A DNA stretch of 59,118 nucleotides, taken from Candidatus Magasanikbacteria bacterium CG1_02_32_51 (GTDB taxonomy: Bacteria > Patescibacteriota > Patescibacteriia > Magasanikbacterales > UBA922). Under the pieces are notes generated by a model that worked only from the letters and a program-made list of their open reading frames with translations, ran no database searches and was not told the DNA's origin. The position numbers and the translations under genes are program-made. Shown piece by piece: positions 5,919 through 53,710 of this stretch (position 1 is its first letter; each line of letters opens with the position of its first letter). The stretch spans positions 1 to 59,118 of the forward strand of contig MNVC01000014.1 in NCBI GenBank assembly GCA_001871435.1, in the 5' to 3' direction.

Positions 5919-6391
5919 CATTGTCTCATTGTGCCATTGTGCCATTGACTTTTTTTACATTATTTTTTATGATAAAGAAGTTTTTGAGTTTAAAAGATAT
6001 TGACTGTTATTTCTTGTCCTATAATCTTAGTAATTATGTTTGGAATATTGTTATACAGTGGAATTACTTTGAAAAGAATAGTCTTGGTTCACAATTTGCT
6101 CGGGCAATTGATTCAATATCATCAAATATAGCAGAAGGATTTGGTAGATATAATAAAAAAGATAAGGTAAAATTTTATAGATACTCCATGGGTTCACTTT
6201 ACGAATGTTTGGACTGGAATCAAAAATCTATGAAAAGAGATTTGATAACAAAAGAAGATTATAATTTTATTTTTGAAAATTTACAAAAAATTAAACCAGA
6301 GATTTATTCACTGATAAATTATACTAACTTAAAATTAAAATTTTAACATCTTAGTAAAGTCACAATGGGTCAGTGACACAATGAAACAATT
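5919..6391. mobile_element. Cassette: inverted 8-mer arrays enclosing a four-helix-bundle gene
   Basis: Left arm cattgtct cattgtgc cattgtgc cattgact (5919-5950); right arm tcacaatg ggtcagtg acacaatg aaacaatt (6360-6391). Confidence 0.65.
5969..6346 (+). CDS. Four helix bundle protein (23S rRNA IVP / TIGR02436-like)
   Basis: LGSQFARAIDSISSNIAEGFGRYNKKDKVKFYRYSMGSLYE signature. Confidence 0.9.
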   Translation: MIKKFLSLKDIDCYFLSYNLSNYVWNIVIQWNYFEKNSLGSQFARAIDSISSNIAEGFGRYNKKDKVKFYRYSMGSLYECLDWNQKSMKRDLITKEDYNFIFENLQKIKPEIYSLINYTNLKLKF

Positions 6392-6438
6392 TATTATGGG
6401 TATATTTATTATGTATATTAACACTAAGTGATTTTTTT

Positions 6439-7455
6439 ATGAATAAAAAAGCATTGATTACAGGCATCACTGGCCAAGACGGCTCATATTTGGCTGAATT
6501 TTTGTTGGACAAAGGATATGAAGTACACGGTATTATGAGACGTTCTAGTAGTTTCAATACTGAAAGAATTGATCACTTATATCGTGATCGACATGGTAAG
6601 GATGTGAAGTTATTTTTACATTACGGAGATTTGACAGATAGCAGTAATATTAGTCGTATTTTGGATGAAGTAGTGCCTGATGAAATTTACAATCTTGGTG
6701 CTCAGAGTCATGTGCGTGTTAGTTTTGATTTGCCTGAATATACGGCTGATGCTGATGGGCTAGGAACACTGCGTTTGTTAGATGCTATTCGTGACAAGGG
6801 GATGAAAGTGAAGTTTTATCAAGCTGGTAGCTCAGAAATGTTTGGTAAGGTATTGGAAACTCCCCAAAAAGAAACTACACCTTTTTATCCACGTAGTCCT
6901 TATGGCTGTGCCAAAGTCTATGCCCATAACATCTCAGTCAATTATCGTGAGAGTTATAATATGTTTGTGTGTAACGGCATACTTTTCAATCACGAATCTC
7001 CTCGTCGTGGTGGTACTTTTGTGACCAAGAAAATTGTTGATGCTTTCAAAAATATCAAAGAAGGAAAACAAGAGAAATTATATTTGGGAAATCTAGAAGC
7101 CAAACGCGATTGGGGCTATGCCAAAGATTATGTGGAAGCTATGTGGCTTATGCTTCAGCAACCAGAACCAGATGATTATGTGGTAGCCACAGGTGAAACT
7201 CACAGTGTTCGCGAGTTTGTGGAAGAGGCTGCCCCGTACTTTGGTTTTGATATAGAATGGCAAGGTAATGGACTAAAAGAAAAAGGTATAGATAAGAAGA
7301 CTGGTAAAACTTTGATTGAGATAGATGAAAAATATTTTCGTCCAGCTGAAGTGGATATATTATTGGGAGATGCTACCAAAGCCAAAGAAAAATTAGGTTG
7401 GGAACCAAAGACAAGATTCAAAGAGTTGGTGAAGATAATGTGTGAGGAAGAATAG
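6439..7455 (+). CDS. gmd: GDP-mannose 4,6-dehydratase
   Basis: [41 protein letters not shown]. Confidence 0.97.
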
Positions 7456-7528
7456 TTTTTTGGTGTTTGTTGATATTTGTTTTATTTTGTTATAGACAAG
7501 GATAGAGGTAAGATGAAAATAATTTAGG

Positions 7529-7647
7529 AATTTTAAATTTTGAATTTTAAAACAATTTTTAATGACTCAATTTTTAATATAGTTTAAAAATTAGTTCATT
7601 TATAAATTTGAAATTGTTTTAAAATTCAAAATTCAAAATTCAAAATT
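7529..7647. repeat. Empty inverted 7-mer (aattttg) array cassette
   Basis: Right arm 7612-7647 is the exact reverse complement of the 36-bp left arm of the gene-bearing cassette at 34281-34316. Confidence 0.85.
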
Positions 7648-7651
7648 CTTT

Positions 7652-8608
7652 ATGGACTATTCTTCAAAAATATACATCGCCGGTCATAATGGTATGGTTG
7701 GATCAGCGATATTTCGTTTACTCAAGAAACAAGGTTATACAAATCTGTTGACACGTACACATCAGGAGTTGGATCTATTAGACGCCAAAGCTGTGGCAGA
7801 TTTTTTTGTATCAGAAAAACCAGAATATGTTATTTTGGCGGCTGCTAAAGTTGGGGGAATTCTGGCTAATAATATTTACCCGGCAGATTTTTTGTATCAA
7901 AATTTGCAAATTCAAAGTAATGTTATTCATAATGCTTATTTGTCTGGAGTAAAGAAATTATTGTTTTTGGGTTCGTCTTGCATCTATCCAAAAGATTGTC
8001 CGCAACCAATAAAAGAAGAATATTTGTTGACAGGATTACTTGAGCCAACTAATGAAGCCTATGCTATTGCTAAAATTGTTGGTATAAAGATGTGTCAAAG
8101 TTATAATAGACAGTATGGGACTAATTTTATAGCCGTCATGCCGACTAATCTTTATGGGCCAAATGATAATTTTGATTTGGAGAATTCTCATGTTTTACCG
8201 GCTTTACTTCGTAAATTTCATGAAGCAAAAGTAAATAATTTGTTAGAAGTAGAAGTCTGGGGAACAGGCAGACCTAGAAGAGAATTTTTACACGTGGATG
8301 ATATGGCGAAAGCTTGTCTTTTTGTCTTACAAAATTTTGATCCTAGTAAAGAAGAAAATGAAAACGGAGAAATATTTTTTAATATTGGTACTGGGATTGA
8401 TTTGACTATTTTAGAATTAGCAGAAATGATCAGGAGTGTGGTTGGTTTTGAAGGTAAAATTGTCTTTGACAGTAGTAAGCCAGATGGAACGATGCAAAAA
8501 CTTTTGGATGTATCAAAAATAAATAATTTAGGTTGGAAAGATGAAATTGGTCTGAAAGAGGGGGTAAAGCAGATATATGAGTGGTATTTGAACTCTATTG
8601 ACACCTAG
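7652..8608 (+). CDS. fcl: GDP-L-fucose synthase
   Basis: IAGHNGMVGSA, AAAKVGGILAN, LGSSCIYPK, EPTNEAYAIAK. Confidence 0.96.
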   Translation: MDYSSKIYIAGHNGMVGSAIFRLLKKQGYTNLLTRTHQELDLLDAKAVADFFVSEKPEYVILAAAKVGGILANNIYPADFLYQNLQIQSNVIHNAYLSGVKKLLFLGSSCIYPKDCPQPIKEEYLLTGLLEPTNEAYAIAKIVGIKMCQSYNRQYGTNFIAVMPTNLYGPNDNFDLENSHVLPALLRKFHEAKVNNLLEVEVWGTGRPRREFLHVDDMAKACLFVLQNFDPSKEENENGEIFFNIGTGIDLTILELAEMIRSVVGFEGKIVFDSSKPDGTMQKLLDVSKINNLGWKDEIGLKEGVKQIYEWYLNSIDT

Positions 8609-8670
8609 TGATACTATATGTTAAAATTGTTTTAGTTGTTGAATCACTACGTTTGTTATAATTAATTTTT

Positions 8671-8733
8671 CAACTACAACAACTACAACAACTACAACAA
8701 CTACAACAACTACAACAACTACAACATTTACAA
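8671..8733 (+). repeat. (CAACTACAA)6 nonamer tandem repeat plus one degenerate unit; short inverted arm at 8627-8641
   Basis: Direct reading; lies between a TTGACA-18-TAAAAT promoter (8598-8627) and the HTH gene. Confidence 0.9.
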
Positions 8734-8746
8734 CATCTAGAACATT

Positions 8747-8992
8747 ATGTCTGAAATCAAACCTAACGAAGTATATACAACTGTTGAAGCTCAAGATCTG
8801 CTTAAAGTGAGTGCAAGTACCATGAAGCGTCTACTCAAAAAAGGTCTTATTAGAGCTAATAAGATTGGTAAACAATACCGTTTTTTGGGTCATGAACTAC
8901 TCAAAATGTTGTCTCCGGAAATTGATGTAAAAGCAACTGATCTTTATCAAAAAGTAAAAATAGAGACTATTAAAAAAACTAAAAGTTGGTAA
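8747..8992 (+). CDS. Excisionase-like (HTH_17) DNA-binding protein
   Basis: VYTTVEAQDLLKVSASTMKRLLKKGLIRANKIGKQYRF. Confidence 0.85.
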   Translation: MSEIKPNEVYTTVEAQDLLKVSASTMKRLLKKGLIRANKIGKQYRFLGHELLKMLSPEIDVKATDLYQKVKIETIKKTKSW

Positions 8993-9032
8993 AATATAAT
9001 CAAATAAAAATTTTCAATATATCATAAATTTT

Positions 9033-10145: not shown

Positions 10146-10169
10146 GTTATTTTAGTTATTTGTTTTTTT

Positions 10170-32891: not shown

Positions 32892-34274
32892 ATGAAAAAA
32901 CCTATGAAACTCCTCTATATTGGTGCCGGATATGTTGGTACTTGTTCAGCAGCTGTCTCTGCCTCAAGTGGGCATGATGTTTTGGTGTATGACATTGATG
33001 AAAAGAAGATAAGTATGTTGTCTTCAGGTGACCGTGACCAGATAGAAGCTTGTCTTTTCGAAGAAGGTCTTAGTGATTTGTTGGTTCGTAATCAAGAAAG
33101 AATAAAATTTACTTTGGATTATCGCAAAGTTGTAGATTTTTTGGATACCTGTGATGCTATTTTCATGTGTTTGCCAACTCCGGAAATTGGAGAAACAGGG
33201 GAGAGTGATCTTAGATATTACAATGAGGCGGCACAGCAATTGGCAGAAAATTTGGCCAAGAGAACTGCTGGAACACAAGAAAAATATATTGTTATAATCA
33301 ACAAAAGTACTGTACCGATAGATATGGTGGATAAGACCTCTGAGATTTTGGAAAGTATGGGTGTCAAGAATTTTGGGGTGGTTTCTAATCCAGAATTTTT
33401 GGTAGAAGGTAAAGCCATTCAAGCATCTATCAAGCCTGATAGAATTGTGGTTGGTGCTTGGACTCAAAAAGATTTTGAAATAATGAGAAAAGTCTATGAA
33501 CGATTCTACAATTCACCTCAGACAAAATATATTGAGATAAATCCCAAAGAAGCGGCAGCAAGTAAACTTCTTGCCAATTATATACTTTTCAATAAATTGG
33601 CTGTGTGTTTCGACGTGGTTGGTCGTACTTGCGAGAGTTTTGAAAATCTTCAATTTGAAAATGTTCGCAATGCTTTGGTCGCAGATCCACGTATTGGAAG
33701 TTGGGGGCTGTACAATAGCCTTTATGCTGGAGGAAGTTGTCTTATCAAAGACGCTCGTTCGCTTTCTCATCAACTCAAATATAAAAATCAAAATACTACA
33801 CTAGTTGATGAGGTTTATTTATCAAACAAAAGACAACTTAATAATTTTTTGAGTAGAATTGATCAAATAATAGATTCTAATTGGTCGAATAAGAAAGTCA
33901 CAATTTTAGGTACAGCATTCAAGCGTGATACCAATGATATTCGCAATTCAGCTAGTATAGAAATTATGAAATATTTGGAAAATAAAAGTATTTCACAAAT
34001 AAATATTTATGATCCAGCTGGGATGGATAATTTCAAAAAAATGTTTGGAGAATCAGAAAAAGTGAAGTATCATCATCACGAATTTGAAGCAATCAAGAAT
34101 TCTGATATAATAATCATAGCTACTGATTGGCCACAGTTTCGTGGTTTGGCTGATGTCATTATTTCTGAGCTTTCTAGCAAACCTTTGATTGCTGATGGGC
34201 GTCGTATGCTCCAACATCGTTATCAGGATTTGAAAGACGCGGGGTTTAAGGTGATTGCAGTAGGAAGTAGATAG
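32892..34274 (+). CDS. ugd: UDP-glucose/GDP-mannose 6-dehydrogenase
   Basis: IGAGYVG, NKSTVP, SNPEFL.EG, GGSCLIKD, AFK..TNDIR. Confidence 0.9.
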   Translation: MKKPMKLLYIGAGYVGTCSAAVSASSGHDVLVYDIDEKKISMLSSGDRDQIEACLFEEGLSDLLVRNQERIKFTLDYRKVVDFLDTCDAIFMCLPTPEIGETGESDLRYYNEAAQQLAENLAKRTAGTQEKYIVIINKSTVPIDMVDKTSEILESMGVKNFGVVSNPEFLVEGKAIQASIKPDRIVVGAWTQKDFEIMRKVYERFYNSPQTKYIEINPKEAAASKLLANYILFNKLAVCFDVVGRTCESFENLQFENVRNALVADPRIGSWGLYNSLYAGGSCLIKDARSLSHQLKYKNQNTTLVDEVYLSNKRQLNNFLSRIDQIIDSNWSNKKVTILGTAFKRDTNDIRNSASIEIMKYLENKSISQINIYDPAGMDNFKKMFGESEKVKYHHHEFEAIKNSDIIIIATDWPQFRGLADVIISELSSKPLIADGRRMLQHRYQDLKDAGFKVIAVGSR

Positions 34275-34280
34275 ATGAAA

Positions 34281-34744
34281 AATTTTGAATTTTGAATTTT
34301 GAATTTTAAAACAATTTTATAATTTTTTAATTTTAAATGGAGGCTATGAATTATGATTTAGAAGAAAGAACGTTGAAGTTTAGTAAAGAAGTTTTAATTT
34401 TTTTATCTGGATTAACAAGTAGTCCAATAAATAATCCAATTATTTCTCAGTTAGTTCGTTCTGCAACTAGTGTTGGTGCAAATTATAGAGAAGCAAATGC
34501 GGCTAGTTCTAAAAAAGATTTCAAAAATAAAATATCAATATCAAGAAAAGAAGCTAATGAAACAAAGTATTGGATAGAATTATTAGGTAATATAGAGTAT
34601 GATAAAGAAGAGTTGCGTAAATTTTGGCAAGAAGCTCATGAATTATCATTAATTTTTGGGAAAATATTTCATAGTTTAACTAGTTAATTCAAAATTTTGT
34701 AATTAGTTAATTGTTTTAAAATTTAAAATTCGAAATTCAAAATT
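34281..34744. mobile_element. Cassette: 36-bp inverted 7-mer arrays enclosing a four-helix-bundle gene
   Basis: Left aattttgaattttgaattttgaattttaaaacaatt (34281-34316); right aattgttttaaaatttaaaattcgaaattcaaaatt (34709-34744); 2 mismatches. Confidence 0.75.
34337..34687 (+). CDS. Four helix bundle protein (TIGR02436-like)
   Basis: YDLEERT..F, QLVRSATSVGANYREA, SKKDF..K..I.RKEANETKYW. Confidence 0.92.
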   Translation: MEAMNYDLEERTLKFSKEVLIFLSGLTSSPINNPIISQLVRSATSVGANYREANAASSKKDFKNKISISRKEANETKYWIELLGNIEYDKEELRKFWQEAHELSLIFGKIFHSLTS

Positions 34745-34759
34745 ATAAATATATTTATT

Positions 34760-35770
34760 ATGTCCAAATATCTCATCACCGGCGGTGCTGGCTACATCGG
34801 TAGTCATGTCGTCAAACAACTTATTGAAAAGAAAAATGATATTGTCATTGTGGATAATCTTTCTACTGGTTTTCAAAAAACAGTAAATACTTTGAAAAAA
34901 TACGCTTTGACAAAAAAAGTAAAATTGGGTTTTTACAAATTAGATTTGGCTGATAGTAAAAAATTGGAAACAGTATTTGCCAAAGAAAATGTCCAAGGTG
35001 TGATACATTTTGCAGCCAGTATCGTCGTATCTGAATCAGTGCGCGATCCACTAAAATATTATAGTAACAACACTGGTAATACAATCAATCTTCTCAAAGC
35101 TTGTTTGAAATACAAAGTCAATAAATTTATTTTTAGTTCTACAGCTGCGGTTTATGGTGATCCAGACCCAAAGACTATTCCTCTAAAAGAAAGTGGAATT
35201 ACTATTCCAATAAGTCCCTATGGTTCTAGTAAATTATTTAATGAAAAAATTATTCAAGACGTAGCTTTTGCTAATACAAATTTCAAGTATGTAATTTTGC
35301 GTTATTTCAATGTGGCTGGGGCTAGTGTAGATGGAATGTTAGGACAATCTACCAAAGATGCGACACACTTAATCAAAATTGCTTTGGAAACAACTCTTGG
35401 AAAACGTGAAAAAATGTTTATCAATGGTACAGATTATAATACTCCAGATGGTACCTGTATTCGTGATTATATTTATGTTGATGATTTGGCCTCTGCTCAT
35501 ATCAAATCTTTGTATTATCTAAACAAAAACAAAGGTGGAATTTTCAACTGTGGTTATGGTAAAGGTTTTTCGGTTAAAGACGTAATTAGTATGATGAAGA
35601 AAGTGAGTGGTAATGATTTCAAAGTAGAAACAACCAAAAGACGTGAGGGTGATCCAGCGATTGTCATTGCTGATAATAGTAAAATAGTTAATGAAATGGA
35701 CTGGAAACCGAAGTATGATGATTTGAAGATTATGTGTGAGACAGCGCTGGCTTGGGAGAAAAAGTTGTAA
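34760..35770 (+). CDS. galE: UDP-glucose 4-epimerase
   Basis: ITGGAGYIGSH, HFAA..V.ESV, SPYGSSK, LRYFNVAG, DGTCIRDYI. Confidence 0.95.
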   Translation: MSKYLITGGAGYIGSHVVKQLIEKKNDIVIVDNLSTGFQKTVNTLKKYALTKKVKLGFYKLDLADSKKLETVFAKENVQGVIHFAASIVVSESVRDPLKYYSNNTGNTINLLKACLKYKVNKFIFSSTAAVYGDPDPKTIPLKESGITIPISPYGSSKLFNEKIIQDVAFANTNFKYVILRYFNVAGASVDGMLGQSTKDATHLIKIALETTLGKREKMFINGTDYNTPDGTCIRDYIYVDDLASAHIKSLYYLNKNKGGIFNCGYGKGFSVKDVISMMKKVSGNDFKVETTKRREGDPAIVIADNSKIVNEMDWKPKYDDLKIMCETALAWEKKL

Positions 35771-35773: not shown

Positions 35774-35843
35774 CACGTAACACGTAGCACATAACTCGTA
35801 ACGATTTTGTTACATGATATGTGTTATGTGATATGGGTTGTGA
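35774..35843. repeat. Empty inverted 7-mer (cacgtaa-type) array pair
   Basis: cacgtaa cacgtag cacataa ctcgtaa / gttacat gatatgt gttatgt gatatgg gttgtga. Confidence 0.75.
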
Positions 35844-36292: not shown

Positions 36293-38233
36293 ATGGATAT
36301 TACACAACAAATTCTAAATAAAATCTTCAAAAACCCCGAGCAGGATTTACTAATGTTTGACGACCCACTTTCTAAATTAGACATTTATGAAAAAGATGAG
36401 GGTAAATATTATGTAAAGTCTATATCAAAAATGGAGGAGGAAAAATTAGTTTACACTGAAAAGACTGGTAAGTCTGCTCCTGAAGAAATTGTTCGTCAAC
36501 TTTATTTATTGGAACTTACAAAGAAATATAAATATCCAAAAGCACATATAGAACTTGAAAAGATAGTGCAGTTTGGTCGTGAAAAGAACGATAATAAACG
36601 TGCTGATATTGTTGTCTACACTGATGAGACTTGGCAAACAATAAAAATGATTATTGAAGTTAAAGCACCTAATGCAGAAAACGATATTCAACAGTTGAAG
36701 TCATACCTGAACGCTGAGGGTTCACCAATTGGTGTTGCCCTTAATGGTAAATATCAGTTGATACTATTCCGCCCATACCCAAAAGATTTTGATACCCTAG
36801 ACCAAATACCTGCATACGGTGAAGATGTTGCCGATGTTCTCCAAAAGAGAAAGACACTTAAAGACCTGCACGAGCAAGACCTTAAAATTATTATCAAAAC
36901 CCTTGAAGAGTTGGTGCTCGCTAATTCAGGTTTTGATAGTTTTGATGAGATATTCAAACTTATTTACGCAAAACTTTACGACGAAAAAGAGGCTATTTCT
37001 CGTAATGGTGAGGAACTCTATTTTAGAAAAAGCCCAACTGGTAAGCCTGAAGACACAATGAAAGTAATCAACGACCTTTTTGAGGACGCTAAAAAGGAAT
37101 GGCCTGAGATATTCGAAAAGACTGACAAAATAAAACTATCACCCGAGCATCTCTCTATTTGTGTTGGTGAATTACAAGATGTCCGCTTGTTTGGTTCTAA
37201 TCTCCGCATCATTGATGAGGCTTTTGAATATTTACTCCCTGATGTAGCAAAGGGTAAGAAAGGTCAATACTTTACACCTCGTATTGTGATTGATATGTGC
37301 GTGCAAATGATGAACCCAAAGAAAAAGGAGTATGTCATAGACACTGCTTGTGGCAGCGCTGGGTTCTTGGTACACGCAATGCAATATGTTGCGAAAAATG
37401 AGAATCTCTCAAAAACAGGAATGAAAGACTATGCAATGCGATACCTTTTCGGTATAGACTTTGACGAGAAATCAACGAAAATTAGTCGTGCGATTATGGT
37501 TATTGCTGGCGATGGTAAAAGTCATATTTATAAAACTACTTCACTTGATACAAAGGAATGGCCTGAGCGTTTTAAGGCAGAACTAAGAGACTATGACTTG
37601 GTACAAGAGTACGATGATTACATAAAAACTAACGATAACAAAGAAAACTTAAAGGAGTTGAAATTTGATGTATTGCTTGCAAATCCTCCATTTGCAGGTG
37701 AAGTAAAGGAAAAACATTTACTGTCTCAGTATGTACTTGGTAAGAATGCTAAGGGTAAGATGCAAAAGTCAGTAGACAGACACTTGCTTTTCATTGAAAA
37801 AAATCTTGATTTCGTAAAAGTAGGAGGTAGACTTGCAGTCGTACTCCCACAAGGTATTTTCAACAACACCAGTGAGGAATATGTCCGTAAATATATAATG
37901 CAAAAGGCTCGTATCTTGGCAGTTGTAGGACTACACGGTAATTCATTTAAGCCACACACAGGCACAAAGACATCTGTTATTTTCTTGCAGAAGTGGAATG
38001 AAAACGAAGTAGATGCTGGCGGAAGTCCAACAGTAAAGGACTATCCTATTTTCTTTGCTACGCAGAAGCAATCATTCAAAGATAACAGTGGTGACTATAT
38101 TTTTGAAAAGGAAGCAGATGGCAGTATCGTAAAAGATACAGACGGTAACCCTAAATACCTTTGCGACTTGGACGAAATCGCAGATGCGTTTGTCGCTTGG
38201 GGTAAAGAACAGAAGTTAGACTTCTTAAATTAA
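36293..38233 (+). CDS. Restriction-modification protein: HsdR_N-like nuclease domain fused to an N6-adenine methyltransferase
   Basis: PEEIVRQ..RADIVVY..IIEVK (PD-D/ExK); GQYFTPR, DTACGSAGFL, LANPPF. Confidence 0.9.
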   Translation: MDITQQILNKIFKNPEQDLLMFDDPLSKLDIYEKDEGKYYVKSISKMEEEKLVYTEKTGKSAPEEIVRQLYLLELTKKYKYPKAHIELEKIVQFGREKNDNKRADIVVYTDETWQTIKMIIEVKAPNAENDIQQLKSYLNAEGSPIGVALNGKYQLILFRPYPKDFDTLDQIPAYGEDVADVLQKRKTLKDLHEQDLKIIIKTLEELVLANSGFDSFDEIFKLIYAKLYDEKEAISRNGEELYFRKSPTGKPEDTMKVINDLFEDAKKEWPEIFEKTDKIKLSPEHLSICVGELQDVRLFGSNLRIIDEAFEYLLPDVAKGKKGQYFTPRIVIDMCVQMMNPKKKEYVIDTACGSAGFLVHAMQYVAKNENLSKTGMKDYAMRYLFGIDFDEKSTKISRAIMVIAGDGKSHIYKTTSLDTKEWPERFKAELRDYDLVQEYDDYIKTNDNKENLKELKFDVLLANPPFAGEVKEKHLLSQYVLGKNAKGKMQKSVDRHLLFIEKNLDFVKVGGRLAVVLPQGIFNNTSEEYVRKYIMQKARILAVVGLHGNSFKPHTGTKTSVIFLQKWNENEVDAGGSPTVKDYPIFFATQKQSFKDNSGDYIFEKEADGSIVKDTDGNPKYLCDLDEIADAFVAWGKEQKLDFLN

Positions 38234-40234: not shown

Positions 40235-41671
40235 ATGGAAAAACAAACCAAAATTGTCTGTACTATTGGACCTTCTTGCGAAGATGTAGATACATTGGAA
40301 AAGATGGTTAAGGCGGGGATGAATATCGCTAGACTAAACTTCTCTCACGGCACTTACGAAAATCACAAAATGCTTATTGCCAATATTCGTAAAGTAGAAG
40401 AAAAGACTGGTGAACCAATTGCTATTTTACAAGATTTGCAAGGACCAAAAATTAGAATCGGCAAAGTCGCTAATGAAGGTGTGGCTTTGTTGGCTGGTGA
40501 AGAAGTAATATTTTCTACCGATCCTAAAGATACTAATTATATTCCTTTGGGTTATCCTGAGTTGCATAATTTTGTGAAGCAAGGAGAAATAATGTTGCTT
40601 GATGATGGTAAAATGCAAGTAAAAATAGAAAGAGTAGTTGATAAAAAAATAATTACCAAAGTCATCGTGCCAGGCATACTTACTTCCAACAAAGGTATAA
40701 ATATTCCCCAAACCGATTTGTCAGGTCTAGTTGTTTTGACTGAAAAAGATAAACAAGATGTACGTTTTGGTATTGAAGCTGGAGTAGATATGGTAGCTTT
40801 GTCTTTTGTTATGAGACCAGACGATATTATTGATTTGCGTTATGAGATTGCAAAATGTGAAAAAGAATTAAACAAACCAGAACATTATCCAATACGTCTA
40901 ATTGCCAAAATAGAAAAAGCTGAAGCTGTAAAAAGAATAAAAGAAATATTGGATGTGGCTGATGGTATTATGGTAGCTAGAGGAGATTTGGGTATAGAGA
41001 TTCCTGCTGAAGAAGTACCTATTGTTCAGAAAAAATTGATAGATGTTGCGTTAGAACATGCCAAACCAGTAATTGTGGCTACACAAATGTTGGACTCTAT
41101 GCAAAACAATCCACGTCCGACACGAGCTGAAGTTTCTGATGTTGCTAATGCTGTGACTGATCATACTGATGCTGTGATGCTTTCCAATGAAACTGCTAGT
41201 GGTAAATATCCAGTAGAAGCTGTCACTATGATGACTAAGATTATCAAAGAAACAGAGAAGTCCGAATATACCAAATTATTTTTTCATCAACCAAAAGACA
41301 AAGTAAATAGGATTGATGATACTATTAGTGGTTTATCTAGACTTGTTGCGGAAGATGTAGGTGCCAATCTTATTTTGGCCGCTTCTTTGTCTGGTGAAAC
41401 TGGTCGTCTAATTTCTCGTTATCGTCCCAAATTTCCTATTGCTGTGGCTACTAGTAGCAAATTGGTTTTGCACCAGCTAAATCTTTCTTGGGGAGTTTTC
41501 CCATTTGAGATTGTTGAGTGTCAAAGTATTGAAGAGTTGGTAGAAAGATCTATGACTCATCTGAAAGAAAAAAAAGTTATCAAAAATGGTGATAGAATTA
41601 TTGTCGTTGCTGGTGAACCTGTAGGTCATGCTGGCCATGTAAATTTACTTGAAGTGAGAGAAGTGAAGTAA
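40235..41671 (+). CDS. pyk: Pyruvate kinase
   Basis: TKIVCTIGP, RLNFSHG, MVARGDLG.E, ATQMLDSM. Confidence 0.97.
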   Translation: MEKQTKIVCTIGPSCEDVDTLEKMVKAGMNIARLNFSHGTYENHKMLIANIRKVEEKTGEPIAILQDLQGPKIRIGKVANEGVALLAGEEVIFSTDPKDTNYIPLGYPELHNFVKQGEIMLLDDGKMQVKIERVVDKKIITKVIVPGILTSNKGINIPQTDLSGLVVLTEKDKQDVRFGIEAGVDMVALSFVMRPDDIIDLRYEIAKCEKELNKPEHYPIRLIAKIEKAEAVKRIKEILDVADGIMVARGDLGIEIPAEEVPIVQKKLIDVALEHAKPVIVATQMLDSMQNNPRPTRAEVSDVANAVTDHTDAVMLSNETASGKYPVEAVTMMTKIIKETEKSEYTKLFFHQPKDKVNRIDDTISGLSRLVAEDVGANLILAASLSGETGRLISRYRPKFPIAVATSSKLVLHQLNLSWGVFPFEIVECQSIEELVERSMTHLKEKKVIKNGDRIIVVAGEPVGHAGHVNLLEVREVK

Positions 41672-42080
41672 AAGGCTCGAAAGGCCTAAGATGCTTGAAA
41701 TGCCAGAAAGGTCTAAAAGCTATGAGTAATAATTTCAAATTTCAAAATCCAAATTTCAAATCAATTACAAATGACTTAATTCCAAAATTTTATATTTGAA
41801 ATTAGGATTTGATTTGAAATTTGGGCTTTGTAATTTGTCATTTAATACTACTATTTTTGTATATTTCCAAAGGTTCATTAAATGAGTGTCAGTGTTATTT
41901 TGAATTAGTTAAAGAATTAGATTTTATAAATCAAAAACAATTTGACTATATAGAAAACAAGTGTGGTGAAGTTGGTTTCTTACTTTTTAAATTAATCAAA
42001 TCCTTGGAAAATTCAAAAGCCTAATTGAGCTCGTCAAGAGCCTTTTGAGCTTTTCAAGCTTTTTAGGCCTTTCAGGCTTT
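41671..42080. mobile_element. Cassette: inverted 9-mer arrays around a broken four-helix-bundle gene, with a nested empty 7-mer cassette
   Basis: aaaggctcg aaaggccta agatgcttg aaatgccag aaaggtcta (41671-41715) / aagagcctt ttgagcttt tcaagcttt ttaggcctt tcaggcttt (42036-42080); inner aatttca/tgaaatt arrays at 41731-41843. Confidence 0.7.
41722..42024 (+). pseudogene. Disrupted four helix bundle gene
   Basis: ATG at 41722 (MSNNFKFQN...) stops inside the nested repeat; C-terminal half FLYISKGSLNECQCYFELVKELDFI...LIKSL is retained. Confidence 0.8.
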
Positions 42081-42136
42081 TTCCAATTTTGTTATTTTAA
42101 CAAAAATGTGTTATAATATTTTCAACTAACTTTAAC

Positions 42137-42223
42137 GTCATTCTGTCCCGATTTATCGGGATCAGAATCTTTTTCAAAAAAATTTTATATTTTTGAAAGA
42201 CCCTGAACTAAATTCAGGGTGAC
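42137..42223. repeat. GTCA..TGAC REP-doublet-like pair; first hairpin loop carries tcccgatttatcggga
   Basis: gtcattctg[tcccgatttatcggga]tcagaatct ... agaccctgaactaaattcagggtgac. Confidence 0.7.
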
Positions 42224-42240
42224 AATTAACTAAATTTCTT

Positions 42241-46080: not shown

Positions 46081-46142
46081 GCGGATCGGACGAGGCTCGA
46101 ACTCGCAACTTTCCCGACTGAGTCGGGATGCTCTAACCAGTT
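46081..46142 (-). pseudogene. tRNA-Asp-derived 3' fragment with the anticodon arm replaced by tcccgactcagtcggga
   Basis: Near-identical to the tRNA at 46188-46248 except the 17-nt arm and one acceptor-stem base; 5' acceptor strand missing. Confidence 0.85.
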
Positions 46143-46184: not shown

Positions 46185-46261
46185 TGGCGGACCGGACGAG
46201 GCTCGAACTCGCAACTTCTGCCGTGACAGGGCAGTGCTCTAACCAGTTGAACTACCGGTCC
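46185..46261 (-). tRNA. tRNA-Asp (GTC)
   Basis: ggaccggtagttcaactggttagagcactgccctGTCacggcagaagttgcgagttcgagcctcgtccggtccgCCA; full cloverleaf with encoded CCA. Confidence 0.97.
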
Positions 46262-46279: not shown

Positions 46280-46525
46280 TTACCATTTTGTTCTATATAC
46301 CAAAGAACGTACTTTTTTTTTTGCTTTTTTAAGTTTTGTTTCCAAATTACAGGCTTCTTTGTTTGAATGGCATTCTATATATCCTATAAGTAACCAAGGT
46401 TCACCTTTCTTAGTATATTGCTCTTGTCCGAGGTTATGTTCGTTCAACCTTCTTTTTAAATCATTTGTTTTACCTATATAGTATTTGTTAATTTTTTTAC
46501 TATATAAGTAATATACCCTCCACAT
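46280..46525 (-). CDS. GIY-YIG nuclease family protein, probably frameshifted in an A10 run near its end
   Basis: VYYLYS..KYYIGKTNDLKRRLNEHN..YTK..PW..A..LE. Confidence 0.88.
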   Translation of the reverse strand: MWRVYYLYSKKINKYYIGKTNDLKRRLNEHNLGQEQYTKKGEPWLLIGYIECHSNKEACNLETKLKKAKKKVRSLVYRTKW

Positions 46526-46543
46526 ATTATTTTATATTAGGAT

Positions 46544-46603
46544 TCGAACTCGCAACTTTCCCGACTGAGTCGGGATGCTCTAACCAGTTGAACTACCGGT
46601 CCG
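46544..46603 (-). pseudogene. tRNA-Asp-derived 5' fragment with the same anticodon-arm replacement, running into the GIY-YIG leader
   Basis: ggaccggtagttcaactggttagagca-tcccgactcagtcggga-aagttgcgagttcga; 3' acceptor strand missing. Confidence 0.85.
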
Positions 46604-46690: not shown

Positions 46691-46732
46691 TAAATTTATA
46701 TTGTTTGAAATAGAGAAATCTATTTTTGAGAA

Positions 46733-46800
46733 AGATCCTGATCCCGATAAAATCTGGACAGGATGACAAATACTGCCATTTCGGACTTAATCCAGAATCT
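46733..46800. repeat. GTCA..TGAC REP-like pair with a tcccga-type loop
   Basis: agatcctga[tcccgataaaatctgga]caggatgac ... gccatttcggacttaatccagaatct. Confidence 0.6.
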
Positions 46801-47520: not shown

Positions 47521-47657
47521 AATAACAAATTTCAACTTGTCTGCCAACAGGCAGGAGCTCAAATGTCAAACCAAAATTAAATGATTAAGTATCAAAAGTT
47601 TTGAAATTGTTAATTTGTAATTGATTTGTCATTTGTATTTTGTTATTTGAAATTTGT
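47521..47657. repeat. Empty inverted 7-mer (caaatgt/atttgaa) cassette with an inserted ctgcc..ggcagg palindrome
   Basis: Arms resemble those at 53256-53310/53659-53710 and 41731-41843. Confidence 0.7.
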
Positions 47658-48721: not shown

Positions 48722-48810
48722 CATTGCTCCATTGTCATATTGTCCTATTGTGGTTTTTCTTTCAAAATTATTGGCAATACAGCAATAGGTCAGTGGGGCA
48801 ATGGGTCAAT
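48722..48810. repeat. Empty inverted 8-mer (cattgtnn) cassette between infC and rpmI
   Basis: cattgctc cattgtca tattgtcc tattgtgg / cagcaata ggtcagtg gggcaatg ggtcaat; same family as 5919-6391. Confidence 0.8.
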
Positions 48811-49374: not shown

Positions 49375-49441
49375 TTGAAAGTTATAAAGTTAAAAGTTCA
49401 TAAAGTACTTTTGACTTTACGAACTTTACGAACTTTTGACT
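49375..49441. repeat. Empty inverted aaagtt-type (7/9-nt) array pair between ssrA and infC
   Basis: aaagttataaagttaaaagttcataaagt / acttttgactttacgaactttacgaacttttgact; single arms also at 32749-32793 and 47482-47516. Confidence 0.8.
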
Positions 49442-49448
49442 AATTTTG

Positions 49449-49853
49449 TGGAGATGCCGGGAATTGAACCCGGGTCTAGATGGGTTATCCCCATATTCTA
49501 CATGTATAGCTAATTTGGTATTTTGTTGGTAGCTAGAAAATTAGCAAAACCACTACCAACTATTCTGAATTGTTGTCAATTGAAACTGTCAGAAAGCCAT
49601 TTCAATTTACGCTCAATGGGGGTTGACACCGCAGATCTCAATATTGAGTATCTCGAGATGCGATGGTAGATGAGCTTATTAAGCTACTACAGATGCGAAT
49701 GATGGCATACTGAAAGCAGAAGCTACAGCAGTTCTCACTCGACTTACTAAGTTTACACTTAGGGATTCTACGCCGGTATTTACGAGGAAAGCGTAGCTCC
49801 TCGACATGCTTATGAAGGGTAACTAGGTCCAACTATCGAACCCTGTCATCCCC
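49449..49853 (-). ncRNA. ssrA: tmRNA
   Basis: 5' GGGGATGACAGGGTTCGA, 3' GGGTTCAATTCCCGGCATCTCCA with G3:U acceptor stem; internal tag frame ends GCT TAA TAA; adjacent to smpB. Confidence 0.95.
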
Positions 49854-50016
49854 CTTTTTTTGTCAAATGACAATTTTTAGATTACAAAGTTTTTGTAATT
49901 TAAATGGTTATCATTTTATTAAACGCTGAAAAATAAAATAGAGATACAATTGAGATAATTTTTGTTTAAAAAAGTAAAATTACAATGAAACAATGGAACA
50001 ATATAACAATGGTTTT

Positions 50017-50463
50017 TTAATAGTCACCCTTGAGGGCACGGTGCATATCACGGCTTTCTTGGCGTTCTTTTAGGATACGTTTTTTATCAAATTGTTTTTT
50101 GCCATGACCAATACCAATTTCTACCTTTATTTTACGGCCTTTAGTATATACTGACAGGGGTAGTATTGTCAAGCCTTTTTCTTGTATTTTTCCTGTTAAA
50201 TAAGCTATTTGTTTCTTGTTTAATAATATTTTACGACTTCTTTCTGGTTCATAATCCTTGATAGTAGCATATTTATATTTGGAAATATGAGTATTTAATA
50301 GATAGGCTGCCCCATCATGAATAGTTACAAAGCTACCAGTAAGCTTGATTTGTTTGCTTCTTATAGCCTTTACTTCTGATCCGGTCAATACCAAACCAGC
50401 CTCAAAGGTTTCAAGGATTTCATAATCAAATCTGGCTTTTTTGTTGATGGCGTAGGTGGGCAT
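50017..50463 (-). CDS. smpB: SsrA-binding protein
   Basis: NKKARFDYEILETFEAGLVLTGSEVKAIR..R.RKILL..GKKQFDKK. Confidence 0.97.
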   Translation of the reverse strand: MPTYAINKKARFDYEILETFEAGLVLTGSEVKAIRSKQIKLTGSFVTIHDGAAYLLNTHISKYKYATIKDYEPERSRKILLNKKQIAYLTGKIQEKGLTILPLSVYTKGRKIKVEIGIGHGKKQFDKKRILKERQESRDMHRALKGDY

Positions 50464-50529
50464 AGTATTGCATTTATTGAAGTACTCTAATGCTAGATGT
50501 AAGATTAAAGTGTGTGATAAGTGCTTTTA

Positions 50530-50596
50530 TATTGTTACATTGTTAAATTGTTATTTTGTTATTGCTCAATTTAGCCATATAACAATTTAACAATTG
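50530..50596. repeat. Empty inverted 8-mer (attgttan) array pair
   Basis: tattgtta cattgtta aattgtta ttttgtta / aacaattt aacaattg; a further single arm at 49981-50012. Confidence 0.75.
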
Positions 50597-50777
50597 CTAA
50601 AATTAGAAAACAATCTTCTAAAATAATGAACTCTATAGGATATTTCGTGTTTATCATAAGCTATTTAGCACTTTTTTGCAAGATTTAGTGAATTGTTGTA
50701 TAATGTTTTTAGTTTTTAGGCAAAATTTTTTGTTTAAATATATTTTGTTTATAATTAACATTTTATTTACTTTAGGG

Positions 50778-50850
50778 CAACAGTTGACAGCCTATAGACT
50801 TGTGATTTTTAGGTGAGCCTGTTGTCTGTAGTCCATAGTCTGTAGACTAG
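50778..50850. repeat. Empty inverted 7-mer (ctgtagt-type) array pair
   Basis: caacagt tgacagc ctataga / ctgttgt ctgtagt ccatagt ctgtaga. Confidence 0.65.
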
Positions 50851-50856
50851 AAATAT

Positions 50857-51297
50857 ATGTCTGATAAAAAGAAAAAAATAGATTTTGTTTTGTTAGTTTT
50901 TGGTTCTATAGCACTTTTTGTGATTATTGCTGTTTTTATAATTTTATATTTACTTTTTAACAAGGATAACAAATCAAAAAACAATTCTCTTATAAAACAA
51001 AATGTTGATTTGAATCCAACAATTACACTTCAAGAATTATCTGATAATTATAAAAAAGATATTGAAACACAAATAAATTTTATAAAAAATACTGACAAAG
51101 ATATTGCTACTCTTTCTCAAGATCTAGAAAATAATATGCTCAAGATTCATGTACCAACAGAAGAAAGAGAAAAATTTTTGAATGTGACTTTGCAATTGGT
51201 ACGTATGCAAAAACAAGGTTTGGAAATAGATCCTAAGGCTAGTAAAGATAAAATTTTGGAATTACTAAATAGTTTATTAAATTATGAAGAAAAATAA
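50857..51297 (+). CDS. Hypothetical membrane-anchored protein
   Basis: N-terminal TM helix and helical soluble domain; overlaps the next gene. Confidence 0.75.
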   Translation: MSDKKKKIDFVLLVFGSIALFVIIAVFIILYLLFNKDNKSKNNSLIKQNVDLNPTITLQELSDNYKKDIETQINFIKNTDKDIATLSQDLENNMLKIHVPTEEREKFLNVTLQLVRMQKQGLEIDPKASKDKILELLNSLLNYEEK

Positions 51298-52096
51298 ACC
51301 GGTTTTTGTTGCCATTTTTTCTGTTTTCATTTTGCCATTGGTTTTGTTGATAGTTAATTTTTTCCCAGGATTTGAAATTAATACTCATATAGTAGTCACG
51401 CCGGATGGTGGATTATTAAATATTAAACTGTTTTATATTTTGATGTTAATAATGAATGCTTACTTTATTTTTATTGCTTTTAGATACAATTTGGACAAAT
51501 CAGAAATTGCTCTCAACTTTATGACTTCTTGGTCGTTTATTGTACTTGTGCTTTTGGTAGAGAATGTTTGGATACGTTATGTATTTATTATATTTTCTAT
51601 GCTGGTATTTTTCTTTATTGCTTATTGGTCTAGACCTAAGACCAGCCAATCTGTTTATGTCAAAGAAAAACCTTTACGTCGGATGATGATGATGCTTTAT
51701 GTTTTCAATACTTATGCTTTTTTGATTGGTGCTTATTCTTTTCATATTTATTTTACCAATTTTTCCTTTGTTTTCATAAGTGTGGTATCATCTATATATA
51801 GTGCTTTTGCAGCTTATATGATTTGGAGTTTGTATTTCAAATCAGAATTCAAAAAACTGGTAGTTTGGTCAATTATTTTTGCGACAATTATTTTTGAATT
51901 GATGTGGGTGATGGTATATTTACCTTTTGGTTATTTGGCTTTGGGATTTTTGACTGTTTGGATTTGGTATTTGTTACAACTCTTTGTGCGTTTTCATTTG
52001 AATAAAGAAGATATTATTTGGAAACAACAAATCAATTTTTTATTAGTTAATTTAATTTTATATATTTTAGTACTTTATATTATTAGATGGGTATGA
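51284..52096 (+). CDS. Polytopic membrane protein of unknown function
   Basis: About 9 hydrophobic segments. Confidence 0.8.
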   Translation: MKKNKPVFVAIFSVFILPLVLLIVNFFPGFEINTHIVVTPDGGLLNIKLFYILMLIMNAYFIFIAFRYNLDKSEIALNFMTSWSFIVLVLLVENVWIRYVFIIFSMLVFFFIAYWSRPKTSQSVYVKEKPLRRMMMMLYVFNTYAFLIGAYSFHIYFTNFSFVFISVVSSIYSAFAAYMIWSLYFKSEFKKLVVWSIIFATIIFELMWVMVYLPFGYLALGFLTVWIWYLLQLFVRFHLNKEDIIWKQQINFLLVNLILYILVLYIIRWV

Positions 52097-53184
52097 TGAA
52101 AATGCAGTCACCACATTTACCAGAAAGAGCTTGCTCAGTGCAAGGACATAATTTTTGGCAAAATATTCGTTTTACAATTTACGTTGTTGTTATTGCTTTG
52201 TTAGCTGGAATAACTGGCTCTTTAGTTGTCTCTGCTTGGTTTGAACCAGATTTTTATTCTACCCAAAAGATATTGTTGGTAAATAGAATTATTGGTAATA
52301 CCACAGACCAAATTGCTACTTGGAGTAAGACACCAAGTCCTTTGGCAGCCAAGAGATTGGAATATAGTACTATAAATATTTTTGACAAGAGTTTGCAAGT
52401 TGCAAAGAATTTTTATTCCAGAGAAGCTTTTTTAGGTAGAGTTGCTATGCTTAGCTCTAGTGGTTGGGGGATAATTTATTATCCAGAATTTAGTCAAGCA
52501 AAATTGTTAAATTGGTTGGCTTTGGATAATCAAGGTTTGGAATACAAAATAGAAAATACTATTTTTGATGCTGAGAGAGGAATGCTCTATGTCAAATTTG
52601 CTGGTAATAATTTTCGCGTAATGTCTTTTCCTAATTGGAATAATTTTACCAATGGAACCAAAGTTTGGGTGTCAGATTATAATGTTTGGAAAGAGAGACA
52701 ACTTGGTGATACAATTGTTGTTATCAAAAATCCTCACATAATTACTGAACAATATAGTCGTTTGCACTTGGAACCAGAAACAGCTCAGGGTGGTATAGTG
52801 ATGACTGAAGAAGGTCAATTTGTGGGTTTTGTGGATATAGATGGTATGTTGCAGACTGCGTGGTTTGCTGACTATCAGTTACCAAATTTGTTGGAAAAAG
52901 GTGAATTTATAAAAAATAATATTGATTGGAGTGGTTATTTTGTAGAGCGTCATGGTGCAAGTGAAGTCGTTGGTGCACCTGGTAGTGGTTTTTTTATAGT
53001 AAATTCTGGCAAAGTCATTACAGATCTCAAAAAAGGTGATATAATTACGAGCGTCAATGGTAGTGAAATTGATCCACACAATCTTTGGAAGACTATACTT
53101 GCTAATGTTGGTGATTTCAATTTGACTGTTTGGAGAAATGGAATAGAAGTAGATTTGAAAATTCACCTAATATCTCAGCCATAG
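52087..53184 (+). CDS. Degenerate HtrA-like (trypsin fold plus PDZ) membrane protein
   Basis: TM anchor, MLSSSGWGII, GGIVMTEEGQFVG and LKKGDIITSVNG..TVWRNG (PDZ); catalytic GNSGG absent. Confidence 0.65.
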   Translation: MGMMKMQSPHLPERACSVQGHNFWQNIRFTIYVVVIALLAGITGSLVVSAWFEPDFYSTQKILLVNRIIGNTTDQIATWSKTPSPLAAKRLEYSTINIFDKSLQVAKNFYSREAFLGRVAMLSSSGWGIIYYPEFSQAKLLNWLALDNQGLEYKIENTIFDAERGMLYVKFAGNNFRVMSFPNWNNFTNGTKVWVSDYNVWKERQLGDTIVVIKNPHIITEQYSRLHLEPETAQGGIVMTEEGQFVGFVDIDGMLQTAWFADYQLPNLLEKGEFIKNNIDWSGYFVERHGASEVVGAPGSGFFIVNSGKVITDLKKGDIITSVNGSEIDPHNLWKTILANVGDFNLTVWRNGIEVDLKIHLISQP

Positions 53185-53238
53185 TCTGATCCGCCTTGGG
53201 CGGATAATTAATAATTTCTAATAAAATTATAAATAAAT

Positions 53239-53658
53239 ATGGAGGGGGATACAATAATTACAAATGACAAAATCCAAATTACAAATCAAAATCAAAATAC
53301 CAATGTCAAAGTTTACGACTTAGTTGAGAGAACAGGAAAATTTGGTGAAGATATAATAGTCTTTCTGAAGACTTTGGTAAGAGATGTTATAAATAACAGG
53401 TTGATAGACCAAATAATTAGATCAGCTACTAGTATAGGTGCAAATTATATGGAAGCAGACGGTGCTGAATCAAAAAAAGATTTTATACACAAAATGGCAA
53501 TATGCAAAAAAGAAGCAAAAGAAACAGAACATTGGCTTAAAATGTTGGCCAAAGCAAATGATAGTAGAATAGACGAATGTAGGAAATTGTGGAAAGAAGT
53601 ACATGAGTTGACATTAATATTTTCAAGTATTTTAAATAAAAGTAAAAATAAGAAATAA
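53239..53658 (+). CDS. Four helix bundle protein (TIGR02436-like); N-terminus translated through the left repeat arm
   Basis: YDLVERT..F, QIIRSATSIGANYMEA, SKKDF..K..ICKKEAKETEHW. Confidence 0.92.
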   Translation: MEGDTIITNDKIQITNQNQNTNVKVYDLVERTGKFGEDIIVFLKTLVRDVINNRLIDQIIRSATSIGANYMEADGAESKKDFIHKMAICKKEAKETEHWLKMLAKANDSRIDECRKLWKEVHELTLIFSSILNKSKNKK

Positions 53659-53710
53659 TTTTGCATTTATTATTTGAAATTGATTTGACATTTGAACTTT
53701 GAAATTTGGT
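53256..53710. mobile_element. Cassette: inverted 7-mer arrays around a four-helix-bundle gene
   Basis: aattaca aatgaca aaatcca aattaca aatcaaa ... aatgtca / atttgaaattgatttgacatttgaactttgaaatttgg. Confidence 0.7.

Follow-up and report, generated by a model that had tools for sequence, protein, structure and literature searches.

Four-helix-bundle genes between inverted arrays of short repeats in bacterial operon spacers: candidate cassettes of the intervening-sequence type

Intervening sequences (IVSs) of ribosomal RNA (rRNA), and the S23p proteins that go with them, have been known for more than 30 years and have, to our knowledge, been assigned no function. The IVS in the 23S rRNA of Coxiella is 428 nt long, with a terminal stem of 28 bp; directly upstream of its S23p open reading frame (ORF) stand three tandem heptamers and one degenerate unit, their number varies between strains, and RNase III cuts in vitro where the first repeat begins (PMC4990558). 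The same paper cites Lin 2006 for a Xanthomonas member of the family, a pentamer with a four-helix-bundle structure, and ORFs of the 23S_rRNA_IVP family (PF05635) have been described in 16S and 23S insertions of bacteria of the candidate phyla radiation (CPR) (PMC11270868). A second puzzle concerns spacers between genes. Tandem heptamers were the commonest intergenic periodic repeat in a survey of 7006 prokaryotic genomes (SPADE), which found 'no clear clue' to their function (PMC6344855). G-rich heptamers (GGGAATC) of Xanthomonas and Nostoc are transcribed and often form convergent pairs, 70 and 75 of them in two Xanthomonas genomes; the available parts of that paper give neither origin nor function and leave S23p unmentioned, with 0 occurrences of 'S23' (PMC4692102). 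In the open-access literature, taken without supplements, we found no paper tying PF05635 genes in general to inverted arrays of short units. Here we analyse 59,118 nt of DNA (the window) from Candidatus Magasanikbacteria bacterium CG1_02_32_51 (assembly GCA_001871435.1, contig MNVC01000014.1, positions 1 to 59,118 of the forward strand), in which genes of this four-helix-bundle family lie between just such arrays. The inverted-array anatomy of these loci is real, strongly non-random and phylum-wide. We suggest that it probably represents stem-closed cassettes of IVS type in operon spacers, accompanied by gene-less remnants.

The window is the whole of contig C39 of an 837-kb genome in 48 contigs, 91% complete and with a GC content of ~32%; the DNA runs that contain the stretch are labelled as groundwater and aquifer metagenomes. 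Three ORFs, 5969-6346, 34337-34687 and 53239-53658, match PF05635 in a profile search with E-values of 9e-23, 6e-18 and 6e-17 (62-81 bits, cut-off 33.8) and TIGR02436 with 81-83 bits (cut-off 24). The second of these proteins also matches PDB entry 2rld, which has five chains, with an E-value of 3.4e-16, by sequence only. The named records with the nearest protein relatives are from Doudnabacteria, Nomurabacteria, Daviesbacteria and other Patescibacteria; like the small genome size, they point to a bacterium of the CPR/Patescibacteria. A fourth match, at 41854-42009, covers the C-terminal half of both models (36 bits for TIGR02436) and belongs to a broken gene, the frame of which (41818-42024) retains the C-terminal half of a four-helix gene. 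The three intact proteins matched 0 families of the PADLOC defence profiles, and the one protein searched against phage records had no match there. As the initial annotation had described, each of the four genes lies between two inverted arrays of degenerate 7-9-nt units, and an inverted-repeat search of the window ranks the arm pairs among its longest hits. Rfam matches at gathering level in the window are to tmRNA and tRNA only, and no known RNA family covers the hairpins.

All four cassettes are on the plus strand. In cassette 1, a 5' arm of about four degenerate CATTGTG-type units (5911-5947) precedes a gene of 125 aa counted from its ATG (5969-6346; PF05635 E 8.7e-23, TIGR02436 81 bits), and CACAATG-type units make up the 3' arm (6356-6391), which forms an inverted repeat of 36 nt and 75% with 5911-5946 and pairs with that segment in the minimum-free-energy (MFE) fold; an alternative TTG start at 5921 would translate through the arm. 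The 5' arm of cassette 2 (34268-34338) consists of TTTTGAA units and a sub-terminal segment, and is followed by a gene of 116 aa (34337-34687) and a 3' arm (34687-34757); the two arms match over 71 nt at 79%, form 52 arm-arm pairs in the MFE fold and give a duplex z-score of -10.7. In cassette 3 the AAATYCAAA units of the 5' arm (53254-53310) fall within codons 1-24 of the ORF as annotated (53239-53658, 139 aa), in which the family match starts at residue 30, and the 3' arm (53659-53715), before a Wzz-like gene, pairs with them over 57 nt at 70%. In the broken cassette one element is nested within another. Outer arms of AAAGGCYYG-type 9-nt units (41670-41711, after pyk, and 42041-42082, before ppsA; 42 nt, 79%; duplex z -8.4), enclose a gene-less hairpin of another family (41731-41842) and the C-terminal gene remnant (41854-42024, model positions ~57-109). 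Arms of the AAAGGCYYG-type family also flank intact genes in three related genomes, G006, G004 and G001 (loci L014, L033 and L046).

The order of the neighbouring genes was checked. Cassette 2 lies between ugd and a galE-like gene, the broken cassette between pyk and ppsA, and further gene-less hairpins occupy the gaps between smpB, tmRNA, infC and rplT. One placement is corrected relative to the initial annotation: cassette 1 lies upstream of gmd, after Wzy_C, and it is a gene-less hairpin (7528-7648) that occupies the gap between gmd and the fcl-like gene. The cargo of the window cassettes is PF05635 alone, and the element encodes no transposase or recombinase, as had been stated, although a nuclease-fold gene with the same arm build occurs elsewhere in the genome, as discussed below.

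The same anatomy recurs across the genome. A profile search of all contigs, of the kind that the initial annotation had called for, finds 11 PF05635 loci, nine full and two fragmentary. Both arms are visible by eye at 10 of the 11, and the unit sequence is particular to each copy; the copy on contig C4 is 5'-truncated and lacks an upstream arm, while it keeps the downstream array, and it is flanked by nusG-like and rplK-like frames (named by eye). As a control, the inverted-repeat score of the flanks was computed for 221 small ORFs of matching geometry from this genome; its median is 21 and its 95th percentile 32. Four-helix genes occupy most of the top ranks of this score: eight of the 11 exceed 32, two others reach 31 and 27, and the C4 copy reaches 17. 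RNA folding gives arm-arm pairing in all ten cassettes tested (11-55 pairs), with z-scores of -4.0 to -11.8 for the arm duplex against shuffled arms. In one four-helix copy (G000:C37:6163-6489) a single in-frame TGA lies near the start, where other copies have a conserved tryptophan; this could be a fresh pseudogene or indicate a downstream start, and there is no further sign of TGA recoding.

Short-unit arrays are also abundant in general. Tandem Repeats Finder (TRF), with periods of 6-11 and a score of at least 40, reports 182 arrays in the genome against 20 in locally shuffled sequence; at a score of 30 the numbers are 830 and 281. Inverted partners occur within 150 nt for 51 arrays and within 700 nt for 67, compared with 10 for shuffled arrays. 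Besides the four-helix genes, arm pairs bracket a helix-turn-helix ORF, an ORF of the GxxExxY family and three housekeeping genes, of which smpB lies in the window and infA and rpsG elsewhere. All 11 four-helix loci sit between long protein-coding ORFs, outside rRNA, and at all 11 both neighbours are co-directional with the four-helix gene, against a baseline of 414/622 genes.

Among 30 relatives the distribution of PF05635 is patchy, with 8-12 copies in every one of the six other genomes of the genus and 0-7 in other genera of the family. We compared matched with mismatched flank pairs at 67 loci (60 fetched from relatives in 16 genomes, less two dropped for short flanks, plus nine of this genome). 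Matched pairs exceed the 95th percentile of the mismatched set at 56 of them, the medians being 43 and 20; the 99th percentile of that set is unusable because its upper tail is inflated by overlapping and orthologous loci. For a wider sample, an alignment of 27 four-helix sequences offered no conserved stretch for use as a search pattern, and a peptide pattern from an alignment of eight close proteins was used instead. With one genome per species this gave 80 loci of one subfamily, hosted by Patescibacteria, Bacteroidota, Acidobacteriota, Clostridia, Gamma- and Deltaproteobacteria, Planctomycetota, Chloroflexota, Kiritimatiellota, Fibrobacter and two archaeal metagenome-assembled genomes. Of the 78 with usable flanks, 65 lie above the 95th and 40 above the 99th percentile of mismatched pairs. 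Since matched flanks beat mismatched ones across GC contents of 0.28-0.66, the pattern is no artefact of AT-rich sequence, and the arm build holds at a GC of 0.5-0.66 (for example at loci L092, L122, L138 and L151).

In this diverse set the unit is a heptamer at 34 of the 39 loci with clear periodicity. The dinucleotide AG is present in 32 of the 39 consensus units, where 20.6 are expected and 0 of 2000 shuffles reach 32, although the kinship of the loci makes this a lead and not a test. The sense strand of the upstream arm is G-rich and C-poor. Neighbouring genes are overwhelmingly co-directional with the four-helix gene, both in the relatives (upstream 34 co-directional and 2 opposed, downstream 42 and 1, both sides at 24 of 27 fully callable loci) and among the diverse loci (upstream 37 and 5, downstream 45 and 1, both sides at 30 of 32). 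The family also reaches cyanobacterial plasmids, where it is found in 29 records. In a Nostoc plasmid copy the inverted heptamer arrays number four units upstream and seven downstream, the arm pair of a Calothrix copy is weaker, and two copies on plasmids of PCC 7120 have a downstream array only, next to an ISL3 transposase gene.

Eight sites in the window had been reported to have the same arm architecture with no gene inside. All eight form hairpins in RNA folds, with z-scores of -2.1 to -9.9, and for six the match to arms of a gene-bearing cassette scores higher than in any of 20 shuffles. The hairpin in the gmd/fcl-like gap (7528-7648; TTTTGAA/TTTTAAA units; inverted repeat of 36 nt, 92%) has arm and sub-terminal sequence in common with cassette 2 (score 62 of 72), and hairpins of its type occur in dozens of copies per genome across the genus. 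After the galE-like gene, the hairpin at 35774-35843 (CACGTAA/CACATAA units; z -4.9) resembles a cassette arm of a relative, locus L039 (score 40, shuffled maximum 28). The inner hairpin of the broken cassette (41731-41842; AAATTTCAAA units; 42 nt, 81%; z -6.1) occupies the place expected for the N-terminal part of the gene and resembles the arms of cassette 3 (score 54), as does a composite hairpin at 47521-47657, in which AAATTTCAAA/ACAAAT units surround an inner GC hairpin (z -3.9/-5.1; score 60, shuffled maximum 42). In the tmRNA/infC gap, AAGTTCATAAAG units at 49375-49441 match the arms of the C29-type cassette family. The weakest hairpin, at 50778-50850 (CTGTAGTC units; z -2.1 on the plus and -3.7 on the minus strand), has an arm that matches cassette arms of L045 and of the C4 copy. 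Downstream of the minus-strand infC, the hairpin of CATTGTC units at 48722-48810 (z -5.1 on the plus strand) has a similarity to the arms of cassette 1 that stays within the shuffled control, and the hairpin upstream of smpB (50530-50596; TTGTTA/CATTGTT units; z -4.1) has no cassette arm partner above that control. A single array of ACAATG units at 49976-50006 pairs with 50527-50557 across smpB (31 nt, 87%). Aligned with one another, full and gene-less elements have arm and sub-terminal sequence in common as far as the start codon. Gene-less hairpins of the cassette arm families thus appear, on this alignment, to be ORF-less derivatives of cassettes.

Orthologous gaps differ in what they hold, as had been anticipated. 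At the Wzy_C/gmd gap this genome has the cassette with CATTGTG arms, genome G004 has a cassette with GTCCATAAA arms, a different four-helix gene and an extra hairpin, and G006 and G005 have gene-less hairpins of two other unit families. In G002 the gap (L074, C121:20990-21640) holds the first ~ten codons of a CATTGTG-type gene followed by an unrelated ORF of 117 aa, DUF559-like by eye and bracketed by C-rich palindromes of its own. A palindrome-bracketed insert similar to this one was also noticed in G048 (L198), at the Flavobacterium site described below. At the ugd/galE gap the full TTTTGAA cassette of this genome corresponds to TTTTGAA arms without a gene in G004, to a 40-nt spacer with another unit family in G006 and to a hairpin of ATACGAA units in G001. 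Every gap compared within the genus contains some array, the families differing. At one site in Flavobacterium, seven genomes have a cassette, and at least eight have in its place a gap of 80-205 nt that holds an ordinary, non-periodic hairpin; the entire spacer differs between these alleles, and no target duplication is seen. Indeed, filled, gene-less and ordinary-hairpin alleles show no target-site duplication or clean empty site at any gap compared, in agreement with the initial annotation, which had seen no clear duplication. Arrays above background at four-helix genes elsewhere and polymorphism at orthologous gaps together support its core proposal, a family of gene-bearing and gene-less elements with pairing arms.

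The arms change in sequence but do so in concert. In four orthologous Flavobacterium cassettes, arm pairing within a species scores 46, 35, 49 and 43, compared with 15-33 when arms of two clades are combined. The left arms of the two clades have only 14-33 of 120 points in common, while their proteins are 61-70% identical. That orthologous arms diverge yet remain complementary implies that arm pairing is under constraint, and we read these alignments as compensatory change between the two arms, with homogenisation across units. Across phyla, the more alike two proteins are, the more alike their arms tend to be (Mantel r 0.32, 0 of 2000 permutations): arms are in common in 54% of the 13 closest protein pairs and in ~2% of the remaining pairs, and one subfamily with related arms occupies four non-homologous sites in four genomes. 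These comparisons suggest that a gene and its arms are passed on, and moved to other sites, as a unit, also across phyla. We considered whether the conservation of units at ~55-60% protein identity proves specific recognition of arms by the protein, and rejected it as proof. Co-inheritance suffices to explain the correlation, since the Flavobacterium orthologues, at 61-70% identity, have different units.

Four-helix genes are not the only cargo. The sole GxxExxY gene of the genome (C28:58284-58670; TIGR04256 133 bits, PF13366 E 3.5e-40), outside the window, is bracketed by inverted arms (G000:C28:58238-58700). Its protein has by eye a D...ExK pattern, which we take to be typical of the PD-(D/E)XK nuclease fold. 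The inverted-arm build is found at 22 of 28 GxxExxY genes in relatives and at 18 of 29 in the Flavobacterium set, with units of ~9-10 nt that are looser than those of four-helix genes. Of the CPR genomes, 11 have both genes, six the four-helix gene only, none GxxExxY only and 14 neither; for Flavobacterium the corresponding numbers are 15, four, none and seven, the genomes of both sets being kin.

How might such units work? On the reading that we think probable, a cassette is a small ORF (PF05635 here, the PF13366 GxxExxY gene elsewhere in the same genomes) closed by a stem of 25-70 bp, the arms of which are inverted arrays of degenerate 7-9-nt units. Because the cassette fills a co-directional spacer in the same orientation as its neighbours, we propose that read-through transcription includes it in the transcript of the operon. 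The arms would then pair, at the level of RNA and not of DNA, so that the cargo is looped out. RNase III, for which the genome encodes a gene (C33:8007-8660, 223 bits), would be expected to cut the long stem in the mRNA as it does in the 23S rRNA intervening sequence; such cutting would part the flanking cistrons and free a cargo RNA with stem ends. The units could turn over by slippage while complementarity of the arms is maintained, and spread at the DNA level might proceed by recombination between arrays or with the help of the co-occurring PD-(D/E)XK nuclease. Read-through, arm pairing and an RNase III cut together offer what seems to us the most economical mechanism for the cassettes. They are of IVS type but are no members of the IVS class, since they do not lie in rRNA.

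Several points weigh against this reading. Read-through of the arms and their cleavage by RNase III are steps that we infer, a search for RNA runs containing 33700-35400 found none, and the position inside rRNA by which an IVS is defined is not found here. The diverse loci were chosen by a single peptide pattern from one subfamily and are mutually non-independent. Co-orientation with neighbours could partly stem from replication-strand bias. Arm mismatches on the sense strand, counted as G-U against A-C, number 32 and 51 in the diverse set and 67 and 51 in the relatives, 99 and 102 in sum; without an excess of G-U the signature of a purely sense-RNA structure is absent, and pairing in DNA or on both strands fits equally. 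Finally, the Flavobacterium cassette replaces a whole spacer, including an ordinary hairpin, implying that the hairpin may merely serve the host.

The missing wobble bias is one of the points in favour of a different kind of system, a DNA-level mobile element of the transposase type, with MITEs (miniature inverted-repeat transposable elements), or of the RAYT/REPIN type, which we regard as a serious though doubtful candidate. Here the arms would be terminal inverted repeats, folded in single-stranded DNA or as cruciforms, the GxxExxY protein a trans-acting PD-(D/E)XK nuclease by which every arm-bearing unit is mobilised, the four-helix protein an accessory binder of nucleic acid and the gene-less hairpins miniature passengers. 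The dozens of gene-less copies of one arm family per genome, and the occurrence of the same cassette type at non-homologous sites, are what such an element would leave. In metagenome runs X1, X2 and X4, among four DNA runs compared, contigs with the TTTTGAA arm words of cassette 2 (34270-34326) have a summed depth of ~800-3000, against 10-40 for the flanking genes (up to ~3000x against ~38x), counts that include other organisms. Metagenome contigs also end at the arms of this cassette. The arm family is thus highly repeated in these communities and breaks assemblies. Some contig joints skip ~340-410 bases between the arms; we do not count them as alleles, since they may derive from gene-less copies elsewhere or in other organisms.

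The GxxExxY genes also speak for DNA-level mobility, in that they share the arm build and are confined to genomes with four-helix genes in both sets. However, the six CPR and four Flavobacterium genomes that have four-helix cassettes and no GxxExxY gene are at odds with a nuclease acting for both, the nuclease role is itself putative, and the co-occurrence counts come from kin genomes that are not independent. Array density (periods 6-11) is similarly two-sided. In the CPR family, carriers have 12-22 arrays per 100 kb and three of four non-carriers 2-4, the other non-carrier, G008, having 11 from 45 kb only; in Flavobacterium the contrast is weak, with 1, 1, 3 and 2.8 per 100 kb in non-carriers, 16, 4, 3.7 and 4 in carriers and 0-6 in shuffled sequence, so that one carrier in four stands above background. 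The lack of target-site duplications and clean empty sites also counts against transposition, the copies within a genome are old, with differing arms, unlike the products of recent transposition, and the 94-100% co-orientation with neighbours is not expected of a DNA transposon.

A third account, which we consider unlikely, makes the hairpins servants of the host. Operon transcripts would be stabilised, punctuated or attenuated by long intergenic stem-loops, which these genomes build from slippage-prone arrays, the four-helix protein would be a trans-acting binder or regulator of the stems with its gene placed inside one for autoregulation, and mobility would be ordinary recombination only. 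The hairpins do lie among housekeeping genes (gmd/fcl, tmRNA/infC and around smpB, and infA and rpsG on other contigs), 134 of the 182 TRF arrays fall in non-coding sequence, which a crude ORF map puts at 19% of the genome, and the universal presence of arrays, of differing families, in the gaps compared within the genus, like the substitution of a cassette for an ordinary hairpin in Flavobacterium, fits this account. The pentameric ring of the family (Lin 2006 as cited in PMC4990558; five chains in 2rld) would suit a repeated ligand. On the other side, no arm hairpin between 34000 and 53900 has the form of an intrinsic terminator: we counted eight sites there that resemble one, with 8.5 expected, and none at any arm. 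The patchy distribution, with whole genera of the family having no copy, and the recurrence of one arm-plus-gene type at non-homologous sites, in different phyla and on cyanobacterial plasmids, point instead to selfish spread, and a second, unrelated cargo with the same build is difficult to accommodate.

Chance, in the form of AT-rich, low-complexity spacers that merely look periodic and inverted, draws some colour from the ~32% GC of the genome and from the many arrays that low-threshold TRF finds in shuffled sequence, but it is refuted by the arrays at the higher threshold, the matched flanks, the persistence of the build at a GC of 0.5-0.66 and the compensatory change in arms, and we give it next to no credence.

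Returning to the IVS-type cassettes, we may ask how far the idea extends. Some, at least, of the unexplained heptamer repeats between genes may have originated from them. A broader conjecture, which we put forward as rather doubtful, is that four-helix pentamers, GxxExxY proteins and short-unit arrays together make up a single self-propagating system of wide occurrence. In it, each lineage of protein would recognise its own arm unit, with the conserved AG core as a common contact, and the nuclease would move or copy arm-bounded units; the thousands of unexplained intergenic heptamers in bacteria and archaea, those of cyanobacteria and xanthomonads among them, would be its arms and remnants, and the rRNA IVSs the subset that landed in rRNA. 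Linking IVS proteins with heptamer repeats, and both with a sister cargo of nuclease fold, makes the two puzzles testable. If the link is true, such stems would shape the processing of operon mRNA in very small genomes, and the annotations 'four helix bundle protein' and 'GxxExxY protein' could acquire a context rule.

Other repeats and small genes of the genome deserve mention in their own right. At 8606-8740, after the fcl-like gene, a tandem CAACAACTA array has just a short inverted partner upstream and is nearly one-armed. Directly after the hairpin at 35774-35843 lies a gene (36293-38233) for a 646-aa restriction-modification protein, a fusion of HSDR_N, N6-methylase and Eco57I-type parts. 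A dispersed family of non-periodic intergenic hairpins, of the GAAAGAYCCTGA...TCAGGRTGAC type, is represented in the window at 42180-42225 and 46720-46775 and elsewhere in the genome at C4:4742-5023, C12:7339-7562 and C23:5194-5316. A perfect GC-rich palindrome of 28 nt, unlike the periodic arms, occurs twice (1291-1318 and 1698-1725) and brackets part of the ORF at 1400-1972. On the minus strand, a GIY-YIG ORF of 81 aa (46280-46525) lies between tRNA-Asp (46185-46261) and two partial tRNA-like duplicates (~46084-46140 and ~46541-46600), an arrangement that resembles the insertion of a small nuclease gene into a tRNA locus, the tRNA ends being duplicated. Two ORFs that by eye resemble remnants of IS200/RAYT-type Y1 transposase genes are found at C28:28897-29537 and C22:4824-5331, each with non-periodic hairpins of its own.

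Set beside known systems, the cassettes resemble several and coincide with none. Avd, a protein of diversity-generating retroelements (DGRs), is a pentameric nucleic-acid-binding ring. It is of the same fold superfamily as the four-helix proteins described here. Avd-like domains accompany DGR reverse transcriptases (PMC8934634), whereas the present genome, 91% complete, has 0 matches to the reverse transcriptase family PF00078, and the cassettes have no template/variable repeat pair. With MITEs and the REPINs of RAYT-REP systems they share inverted arms, an intergenic location and many short non-coding copies beside fewer gene-bearing ones; they differ in having no target duplication, in arms that are copy-specific arrays of short units and not one conserved palindrome, and in a cargo that is no known transposase, the IS200/RAYT-like remnants of the genome having hairpins without periodicity. 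The intergenic heptamer repeats of the SPADE survey and the GGGAATC repeats of Xanthomonas and Nostoc are like the present arrays in their short units, mostly of 7 nt, and in their frequent inverted pairing, while the arrays described here are tied to PF05635 and PF13366 cassettes. The closest likeness is to the 23S rRNA IVSs of Coxiella, Leptospira and others, a kinship that the initial annotation had suggested and with which the anatomy of the Coxiella IVS agrees (PMC4990558). In both, terminal inverted repeats close off an S23p/PF05635 cargo with a long stem, and tandem units, heptamers in the IVS and 7-9 nt here, stand beside the ORF. The IVS is part of the host transcript and is cut by RNase III, a step that we propose by analogy for the cassettes. 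Unlike the IVSs, the cassettes lie in the spacers of protein-coding operons, are accompanied by many gene-less copies and carry a second family of cargo.

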